From the IMG/VR virus record IMGVR_UViG_2565956726_000001: a stretch of DNA of 33,385 nt; one strand, 5' to 3'. This stretch comes from a virus (Duplodnaviria > Heunggongvirae > Uroviricota > Caudoviricetes). The position numbers and the translations under genes are program-made. The notes beneath the pieces were generated by a model. It was not told where the DNA came from. It was given only the letters and a program-made list of their open reading frames with translations, and did no database searches. Below, piece by piece: positions 4,574 through 5,152 of this stretch. Positions within the stretch are counted from its first letter, which is position 1. Each line of letters opens with the position of its first letter.

Positions 4574-5089
4574 GTGATCGCTGAATTAACGGCAGCAATG
4601 ACGGCTATTCGTGAAACAGCCCAGATTGCAAAACTAATGAACGAGGCAAAAACTCAAGCTGAAGTAAATGCGGCTATTGGTGAGCTGAACTCAAAGCTTG
4701 CGTCTATTCAGCGCGAATGCGTGTCTCTCGTTGAACTGGTGGGCTCTTATCAAGAAATAAATGCTTCTCTCAAAGCTAAAATTGCAGAATTCGAAAACTT
4801 TGAGGCTCAGACGGAAGGCTATATCCTTAACCAACTTGAGTCGGGTACTTTTGTATACTCGAAGGAGGTAATCGTGAACGGTGGCAGCATAACCATGCAT
4901 CTTTGCCCAAAATGTTTTGGACAAAAGATAGTATCGATACTTCAACCATTCCCGGTTAGCGAAGATGAGCTTTTTCATAAAAGCAGGTGCCTCCACTGTG
5001 AAAATAAGTTTCTGATGAATAAAAATCCGGATTACGTATCGCCTCCATCCATTGAGGAGTTGTCCAGAAAACTTAACGGCAATCTGTAG
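4574..5089 (+). CDS. Hypothetical AT-rich moron protein: N-terminal coiled coil plus C-terminal CxxC...CxxC zinc ribbon
   Basis: Coding-like AT-rich ORF begins at GTG 4574 (AAGAG SD) or ATG 4598; ends 5089; followed by an intrinsic terminator; the N-terminal extension of the track ORF (4310-4573) is GC-rich and non-coding in character. Confidence 0.55.
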   Translation: MIAELTAAMTAIRETAQIAKLMNEAKTQAEVNAAIGELNSKLASIQRECVSLVELVGSYQEINASLKAKIAEFENFEAQTEGYILNQLESGTFVYSKEVIVNGGSITMHLCPKCFGQKIVSILQPFPVSEDELFHKSRCLHCENKFLMNKNPDYVSPPSIEELSRKLNGNL

Positions 5090-5128
5090 ATTGCTACTGT
5101 TGTGGATATCCAGATTGTTAAAGAGCTA

Positions 5129-5152
5129 AGCGTCCTGTAGGGCGCTTTTTTG
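5129..5152 (+). terminator. Rho-independent terminator downstream of the moron gene
   Basis: 7-bp stem AGCGTCC/GGGCGCT with 4-nt loop followed by TTTTTT. Confidence 0.6.

Follow-up and report, generated by a model that had tools for sequence, protein, structure and literature searches.

What is a lone gene doing beside the immunity region of a lambdoid prophage when it points against the early leftward transcription of its own phage? The question is raised by an open reading frame (ORF) near the left end of IMG/VR record IMGVR_UViG_2565956726_000001, a stretch of 33,385 nucleotides of DNA that was analyzed whole and is called the window below. An initial annotation had recognized no protein family in the ORF product and had proposed a horizontally acquired, undescribed defense or lysogenic-conversion gene at the site that rexAB occupies in lambda. 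The product very probably belongs to the Rip1 (ring interacting pore 1) family as a divergent member, and the gene adds a divergent enterobacterial branch to that described family. Homology to Rip1, an experimentally characterized abortive-infection pore, supports the proposed role in prophage-encoded defense. A fuller account, in which this Rip1-family protein forms a pore on phage ring proteins and is controlled by an antisense RNA, is likely, with the mechanism and the control taken over from homologs.

A divergent member of the Rip1 family

Rip1 was reportedly described by Patel et al. (Nature 651:1060, 2026) from Escherichia phage HK446 (gp37) and from a Pseudomonas aeruginosa prophage. 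Several comparisons tie the window protein to it. First, the protein is a full-length member of phrog_1244 in PHROGs (E 9e-60, 201.6 bits), a family labeled ‘unknown function’ that HK446 Rip1 (180.9 bits, E 2e-53), HK620 HkaP (172.5 bits, E 8e-51) and Pseudomonas phage JBD30 gp30 (206.5 bits, E 3e-61) likewise match over their full lengths; the failure to recognize a family thus does not stand. Second, a phmmer search of the PDB sequences returns a single significant chain, 9oox_L, ‘ring interacting pore 1 (Rip1)’ (E 2.7e-7), and a profile of 33 homologs matches this chain at E 1e-19, profile positions 5–150 aligning to residues 15–159 of its 164. The entry holds HK446 Rip1 in complex with the T6 small terminase. 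Third, tblastn with either the window protein or HK446 Rip1 leads to the same phages, JBD30, DMS3, D3112, HK446, HK620 and HK630; with the window protein, E values are 2e-11 for JBD30/DMS3 and 3e-13 for HK620 HkaP. A CxxC...SILQ...CxxC motif is common to the window protein family and HK446 Rip1.

The predicted fold agrees. The AlphaFold2 model (mean pLDDT 90) consists of helices 2–24 and 28–79 followed by a six-stranded domain that bears four cysteines, which bears out the helical N-terminal half and zinc ribbon read from the sequence earlier but with a different spacing, C-x2-C-x24-C-x2-C (Cys 111, 114, 139, 142) and not x22. In a Foldseek search of the PDB, two Rip1 chains of 9oox are alone significant (E 3–5e-7, probability 1.00, target-normalized TM 0.53–0.74); 9oox_M has the best TM (0.74, at E 5e-7), and all matches outside 9oox have E>0.1. 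Profile search and fold search both single out the same Rip1 structure. The four cysteines are invariant in the sub-family, as are S121, L123 and P125; when the HK446, HK620 and JBD30 proteins are added, what remains invariant is the four cysteines, I122 and L123. The window protein has no predicted transmembrane segment, and no 18-residue segment has a mean hydrophobicity >0.35. Amphipathic stretches lie at residues 5–22 and 37–54, with a hydrophobic moment of up to 0.41.

A profile search of 1.84 billion representatives found 2737 proteins at E<=1e-3, 1000 of them at E<=1e-10, and length and layout are constant across the 2737. Just 21 representatives reach E 1e-30; these make up the close enterobacterial sub-family, which is confined to Enterobacterales. 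Searches of Pfam, NCBIfam and PADLOC gave nothing significant for the window protein, only sub-threshold coiled-coil or zinc-ribbon noise, and PADLOC 2023 recognizes neither HK446 Rip1 nor SieB.

The ORF itself was correctly called, at a length that needs adjusting from about 165 residues. Because all 33 aligned homologs share the N-terminus MIAEL..., the start is placed at GTG 4574, which yields 171 residues; the alternative ATG 4598 would yield 163, and the deposited record has a longer, 242-aa frame named ‘hypothetical protein’. The number of homologs (123, with identity down to 40%, besides the 2737 cluster representatives) indicates that the gene is real and under selection. ORF and terminator are found at >=80% coverage in 646 of 5426 complete E. 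coli genomes, O157:H7 and O55:H7 included, and among the matches listed every one that covers the whole ORF is annotated ‘hypothetical protein’. In the O157:H7 example the gene lies in a Rac-like prophage, adjoining racR. The family assignment thus supplies a testable function for a gene of ~12% of complete E. coli genomes.

Exchangeable cargo in the sieB slot

The frame runs antisense to PL and ends in its own terminator, as the initial annotation had it, and the two classical exclusion loci of lambda offer different precedents for such a place. In lambda, rexAB occupies the interval from cI to PL, has the orientation of cI and is co-transcribed with it from PRM; sieB is found further left, just past N, in the reverse orientation, antisense to the PL operon. 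The window gene is parted from cI by both the cI terminator and PL, and no N gene intervenes between it and PL. Its place downstream of PL, its location on the strand opposite cI and an upstream module related by homology to the sieB promoter and sas of lambda and P22 assign it, by these comparisons, to the sieB slot of lambdoid phages and not to the rexAB-equivalent site first proposed for it. HK446 rip1 and HK620 hkaP hold the exact position of lambda sieB, beside N. No conserved partner gene was seen in seven contexts: the gene always stands singly on the strand opposite its neighbors, as in HK446, HK620, JBD30 (between two opposite-strand genes) and prophages of Citrobacter, Edwardsiella and O157:H7.

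One Edwardsiella prophage with a rip1 homolog (L009) also carries, between N and the repressor gene (9105–10785), two ORFs, one of them coding for a GmrSD_N-domain protein; at that place a sister prophage (L008) has a gene for a DnaB-like helicase. This interval looks like another variable defense slot beside the immunity region.

Comparison with close relatives reveals a discrete replacement. Relative to phage SfIV, the difference is confined to 4558–5109, a segment made up of the ORF, the 16 nt before it and the 20 nt after it; in SfIV a 144-aa ORF of unrelated sequence takes the place of the rip1-like one, followed, despite the different cargo, by the same terminator. Relative to SfV, which also carries a different ORF, the replaced segment is 4504–5157. 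Horizontal acquisition, which had been proposed from an AT content clearly above that of the flanks, is better supported by this cassette replacement than by base composition. The GC content of the ORF (42.8%) is below that of the left flank (53%) but not notably of cI (44.7%), and falls at the 9th percentile of equal-size segments of the window (52.2% overall); the excess of AT is therefore seen against one flank only.

The upstream module is followed by other genes elsewhere as well. A pattern scan of IMG/VR, filtered by profile, gave 73 module copies, 22 of which precede Rip1-family ORFs. Others precede true SieB genes, whose products (PF14163, E 1e-13 to 1e-29) fall into at least five sequence types, and further cargo comprises an 83-aa BssS-like type, the 144-aa SfIV_36 type, a 97–98-aa type, a 73-aa zinc-ribbon type and another 83-aa type. 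The non-SieB types have no Pfam or PADLOC assignment save a weak candidate match for the 73-aa protein. Judged by what follows it, the module is a shared 5’ end for interchangeable cargo, and searches at the nucleotide level can use it to find more cargo genes in the sieB slot.

Two of these cargo types were seen repeatedly. The 144-aa protein (MSGNIYTLYKSHCENVGKYRG...; SfIV_36, L003 2774–3208, and also L041, L019, L065 and other loci among many IMG/VR contigs) occupies the same cassette position, again behind the module; Pfam and PADLOC give no match to it, and its position makes its gene a candidate exclusion or defense gene. A protein of 73–75 aa with two CxxC pairs (MQTMRTVCPDCGSEMF...) follows a divergent module copy in L069, L064, L070, L119, L049 and L075, and matches the candidate PADLOC family PDC-M14A weakly (E 1e-5).

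It is possible, if somewhat short of probable, that lambdoid prophages use the module as a portable cassette that expresses anti-phage cargo and silences itself, its antisense RNA being made once PL fires. The weak promoter of the module would express whichever exclusion gene is plugged in, be it sieB, a Rip1-family gene or a gene for one of at least five uncharacterized small proteins, and the structured antisense RNA would shut the cargo off so that the lytic cycle of the phage is not killed. If this is true, the module would serve as a sequence tag for new single-gene defenses, and sas antisense control would reach well beyond the sieB/esc of P22.

The upstream module and a predicted sas-like antisense RNA

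What, then, is the module? A segment of 110–125 nt (~4454–4573) is kept upstream of the rip1 homologs of Citrobacter, Edwardsiella, the O157:H7 Rac-like prophage, HK446 and HK620, with a GCCTG...CAGGC hairpin and two CCCC(A/T)ACA(A/G) boxes 24–25 nt apart as its conserved features. An nhmmer profile of six copies finds homologous sequence ahead of sieB in lambda (E 2.4e-25) and in P22 (E 3.1e-25), a relationship that blastn in ‘distant’ mode did not detect; in P22 the matched region includes the annotated promoter of sieB and the start site mapped for its RNA. The -10 element TAATCT (4536–4541) aligns with TAAACT of P22 sieB, the -35 region reads TTATTCCCC at 4510–4518, and transcription is predicted to start near 4547, just before the second CCCCAACAA box.

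In P22, sas is an antisense RNA that switches sieB translation (Ranade and Poteete 1993, summarized in PMC12197685). Its sequence of 127 nt has been recovered by RNA-seq (PMC13397905), and the P22 module region is the exact reverse complement of this RNA. The corresponding minus-strand element of the window would be complementary to the leader, the ribosome-binding site and the first codons of the rip1-like mRNA.

Covariation supports a structured RNA. When 37 distinct module copies were aligned in minus-strand orientation, 90.5% of cells in three hand-defined helices (P2 to P4, Table 1) were paired, versus 29–45% with the partners slid by 1–3 columns; eight pairs change on both sides, and the observed values were reached in 0 of 500 shuffles. 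P3 and P4 interleave, as either a pseudoknot or two alternative hairpins. U-G wobbles are frequent, one P2 pair being U-G in 19 sequences and U-A in 16. A minus-strand RNA is favored because these wobbles would be C-A mismatches on the plus strand, and because the helices lie upstream of the predicted sense-strand start. RNAalifold gave a weak partial consensus on the 37 sequences, for two reasons: interleaved 3’ helices are outside its model, and the alignment has a one-column shift in seven of its rows.

Proposed mode of action and alternatives

Published work gives a detailed picture of Rip1. According to a review of Patel et al. 2026 (PMC13434031), it is a prophage protein, non-toxic without a trigger, that excludes other phages and leaves the lysogen unharmed. 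Phages that escape it carry mutations in the portal (Pseudomonas phages) or in the small terminase (coliphages), and cryo-electron microscopy shows 12 Rip1 monomers around an 11-mer ring of small terminase, the C-terminal half touching the ring and the N-terminus forming an amphipathic helix (PMC13434031). A central pore runs through the assembly, which causes dye to leak from liposomes and perforates cells, so that they lyse prematurely; homologs are widespread in Proteobacteria, chiefly in prophages, and the Pseudomonas rip1 sits between terminase genes (PMC13434031). A meeting report and an independent paper back the terminase trigger (PMC12908700, PMC13601566).

By analogy with the characterized members, a lysogen would make a low level of the window protein, harmless alone, from a transcript that would begin at the weak PsieB-like promoter and end at the terminator of the gene. 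Once a superinfecting phage reached late gene expression, its small-terminase or portal rings would serve as templates: about 12 copies of the window protein would dock round such a ring by their C-terminal zinc-ribbon domains, and the N-terminal amphipathic helices would bundle into an inner-membrane pore, so that the cell dies before progeny are complete. Transcripts from PL would run antisense through the rip1-like ORF and the sas-like element. Upon PL firing, whether by induction or in a related infecting phage, a leftward sas-like RNA (4580 to 4454) would be made; by covering the ribosome-binding site and start codon of the rip1-like mRNA it would stop further synthesis, and such a shut-off would be a means for the phage to spare itself.

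Several points weigh against this account or parts of it. The identity to all experimentally studied Rip1 proteins is just 25–31%, and the Rip1 mechanism used here comes from a review, a meeting report and the title of a PDB entry. Whereas the helical half and the zinc knuckles are conserved, the extreme N-terminus, presumably the membrane-inserting part, is Gly/Ala-rich in HK446 Rip1 (GAGGALMSAVGAV) and reads AELTAAMTAIRETAQIAK in the window protein, and the first 25 residues as a whole differ in composition. The prophage itself encodes a lambda-type Nu1 (17728–18273) and portal (20373–21974), which the protein may or may not ignore. On the side of control, a consensus scan found no plus-strand promoter upstream of the ORF, and a position-weight scan gave only TTCCCC-17-TAATCT with a score of 5.9, a level reached by chance at ~4–6 sites per kb. 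Because this sigma-70 match is poor, the promoter assignment and expression in the lysogen rest on the homology to P22 PsieB. The P2 helix has one mismatch in the window copy, and the sas-like RNA may arise either by read-through from PL with processing or from a promoter of its own; a conserved, dedicated sas promoter inside the cargo is argued against, since the sequences just inside the differing cargo ORFs are not conserved.

The low identity and the divergent N-terminus also feed the main rival explanation, that a Rip1 fold here acts in another way, by sensing a different oligomer (a recombinase ring, the portal only, or a tail or baseplate ring) or by sequestering terminase without making a pore. 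The inter-knuckle loop (127–138) and the C-terminal tail (151–171) are the most variable parts of the sub-family, and RAZR, an unrelated zinc-finger sensor, recognizes several unrelated rings (PMC13017515). Yet the alignment extends over the whole length, including the long helical half that forms the Rip1 pore, and the architecture is identical, with no extra effector domain and the same length and layout in all 2737 representatives. Such a variant is therefore judged unlikely. The variability of loop and tail is as expected for a ring-recognition surface that sets specificity. Because these two regions and the N-terminal 25 residues all differ from HK446 Rip1, the window protein, acting as a pore-forming Rip1, probably has a different range of triggers from the characterized members, and comparison with this divergent branch is a way to map how phage ring proteins are recognized by the surface of the zinc ribbon.

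Could the gene instead serve the cycle of its own phage, as an accessory lysis-timing device or a packaging checkpoint that responds to the phage’s own terminase or portal rings? In Mu-like phages of Pseudomonas some homologs do separate the genes for the small and the large terminase, and a pore triggered by late proteins could in principle help lysis. Such a role is, however, hard to reconcile with the unrelated cargo of the close relatives SfV and SfIV, with the use of the same regulatory module elsewhere to drive the exclusion gene sieB, with the orientation of the gene against the lytic transcription units, and with the published exclusion of other phages without toxicity to the lysogen (PMC13434031); it is very improbable. 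Slightly less probable still is a decaying or silent passenger without function in this prophage copy, as an interrupted integrase gene (the prophage may be defective) and the want of a strong promoter would have it, given that the ORF is intact, keeps all family-invariant residues, is 99–100% identical to copies in inducible phages isolated from ECOR13, and recurs across the 646 E. coli genomes. Abortive infection by a Rip1-type pore thus remains the preferred reading.

Sequence features and prophage neighborhood

Coordinates of the gene, its control elements and the adjoining immunity region are collected in Table 1. The window is a lambdoid prophage, 987–32549 being 99.3% identical to Escherichia phage PhiR49_1 (PV340568, from ECOR13) and 4300–5300 being 100% identical to it; no paper on phages PhiR49 or PhiR29 was found in the literature. 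The early region is of the SfV/SfIV/ST64B type, with yfdP-, yfdQ-, yfdR- and yfdT-like genes, and the head and tail genes resemble those of lambda. Of five GGTACAT copies in the 33-kb window, two lie in the candidate PL region and one in the cI-cro intergenic region, which also holds a GGTACAA palindrome; the recurrence of the repeats there supports the PL/OL assignment.

Table 1. Features of the rip1-like locus, with copies of the upstream module in other phages.
Feature	Position	Strand	Remarks
rip1-like ORF, 171 aa, GTG start, stop codon included	4574–5089	+	helical N-terminal half; four-Cys zinc-ribbon beta C-terminal half with SILQP motif
Shine-Dalgarno-like AAGAG, 8 nt before GTG	4561–4565	+	AGAG or GGAAG at the equivalent position in homologous loci
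Intrinsic terminator of rip1-like gene	5128–5157	+	8-bp stem, 4-nt loop, T-rich tail; hairpin 5128–5147, then TTTTTGTTG
PsieB-like promoter (predicted)	4510–4541	+	by homology to annotated P22 sieB promoter and RNA start site
sas-like antisense RNA element (predicted)	4454–4580	-	complementary to rip1 leader, ribosome-binding site and first codons; spans promoter and upstream structured region
Two G-rich boxes of sas-like element, UUGUUGGGG	4556–4548, 4522–4514	-	UGU(U/A)GGGG
Helix P2	4524–4528 with 4505–4509	-	covariation
Helix P3	4500–4503 with 4486–4489	-	covariation
Helix P4	4492–4496 with 4474–4478	-	covariation
Candidate PL, TTGACA-16-CATAAT	5237–5264	-	11/12 consensus match; GGTACAT operator-like repeats overlap at 5232–5258
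cI transcript terminator (tIMM-like)	5273–5292	-	equivalents annotated in SfV, HK620
cI repressor (S24 LexA-like)	5304–5978	-	convergent with rip1-like gene
Module copy in P22 (L136)	3139–3261		
Module copy in lambda (L134)	582–700		
Module copy in HK446 (L010)	~3350–3460		

Other features of the window were noted in passing. A scan of 3600–6400 against Rfam 15, at E up to 1, found no family for the sas-like element and only a neighboring sub-threshold match to STnc100 (RF02076; 4239–4462, minus strand; E 1e-6 over the full model length, 40.3 bits where the gathering score is 47). This match lies in the PL leader, immediately past the sas-like element and ahead of the yfdP-like gene, and finishes with a hairpin and a U-run. 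Possible identities are a leader RNA and a terminator/antiterminator element of SfV-type phages, which lack an N gene here. The PhiR49_1 record lists a 38-aa ‘hypothetical protein’ at 5180–5296 on the plus strand, overlapping the candidate PL/OL and the cI terminator; this frame is probably not a gene.

The prophage integrase gene is truncated: its N-terminal ~105 codons alone (987–1302, minus strand) match PhiR49_1, and positions 1–986 hold an IS3-family transposase ORF (54–944; Pfam rve, HTH_21) that interrupts it. This prophage copy may be unable to excise normally. A comparable insertion sequence adjoins a truncated integrase gene at the Citrobacter locus with a rip1 homolog (L006). Between the Q antiterminator gene and the lysis genes lies a reverse-strand moron, a full Gram-negative porin gene (12580–13662, minus strand; Porin_1, E 2e-151), annotated OmpD in PhiR49_1.

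Comparison with known systems

How does the rip1-like gene compare with the exclusion systems already described? RexAB resembles it as a prophage-expressed abortive-infection system near the immunity region that acts on the membrane. It is not of the RexAB type: the window has a single gene to the left of PL, on the strand opposite cI, and the RexAB proteins are unrelated. RAZR (ring-activated zinc-finger RNase, PD-T7-4), reportedly from Zhang et al., Nature 2026, is similar in concept, being a small zinc-finger protein that becomes active on assembly around large phage rings such as portals. RAZR has an N-terminal zinc finger and a C-terminal DUF4145/HEPN RNase (PMC13017515), whereas the window protein has its zinc ribbon at the C-terminus, no HEPN/DUF4145 match in Pfam, no nuclease domain and no detected sequence relationship to RAZR.

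SieB of P22 and lambda shares the early-left slot antisense to PL and a homologous promoter, leader and sas-encoding sequence, and, by the homology of the window protein to Rip1, an exclusion or abortive-infection function expressed from the prophage. The proteins are unrelated: SieB has N-terminal transmembrane helices, while the window protein has no hydrophobic segment and does not match Pfam SieB (PF14163) even at an E cutoff of 1. The ORF also gives no sign of an internally initiated, Esc-like antidote; the internal start considered, Met9 (ATG 4598), is not invariant and has no ribosome-binding site before it.

HK620 HkaP is closer, sharing phrog_1244, the slot and the upstream module, at 28% identity. 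It was annotated in 2001 as a ‘putative superinfection exclusion protein’ by position only, and no experimental characterization of it was found in the literature. The nearest likeness in a characterized system is to HK446 Rip1: both proteins belong to phrog_1244, measure 164–171 aa, and combine a helical N-terminal half with a C-terminal four-Cys zinc ribbon that includes SILQ, and both are encoded by single prophage genes on the strand opposite their neighbors, behind a sieB-type upstream module. Unlike HK446 rip1, the window gene directly follows PL, in an early-left region of the SfV/ST64B type with no N between. That HK446 rip1, the window gene and classical sieB share one promoter and antisense-RNA module suggests how a resident phage could avoid killing itself.

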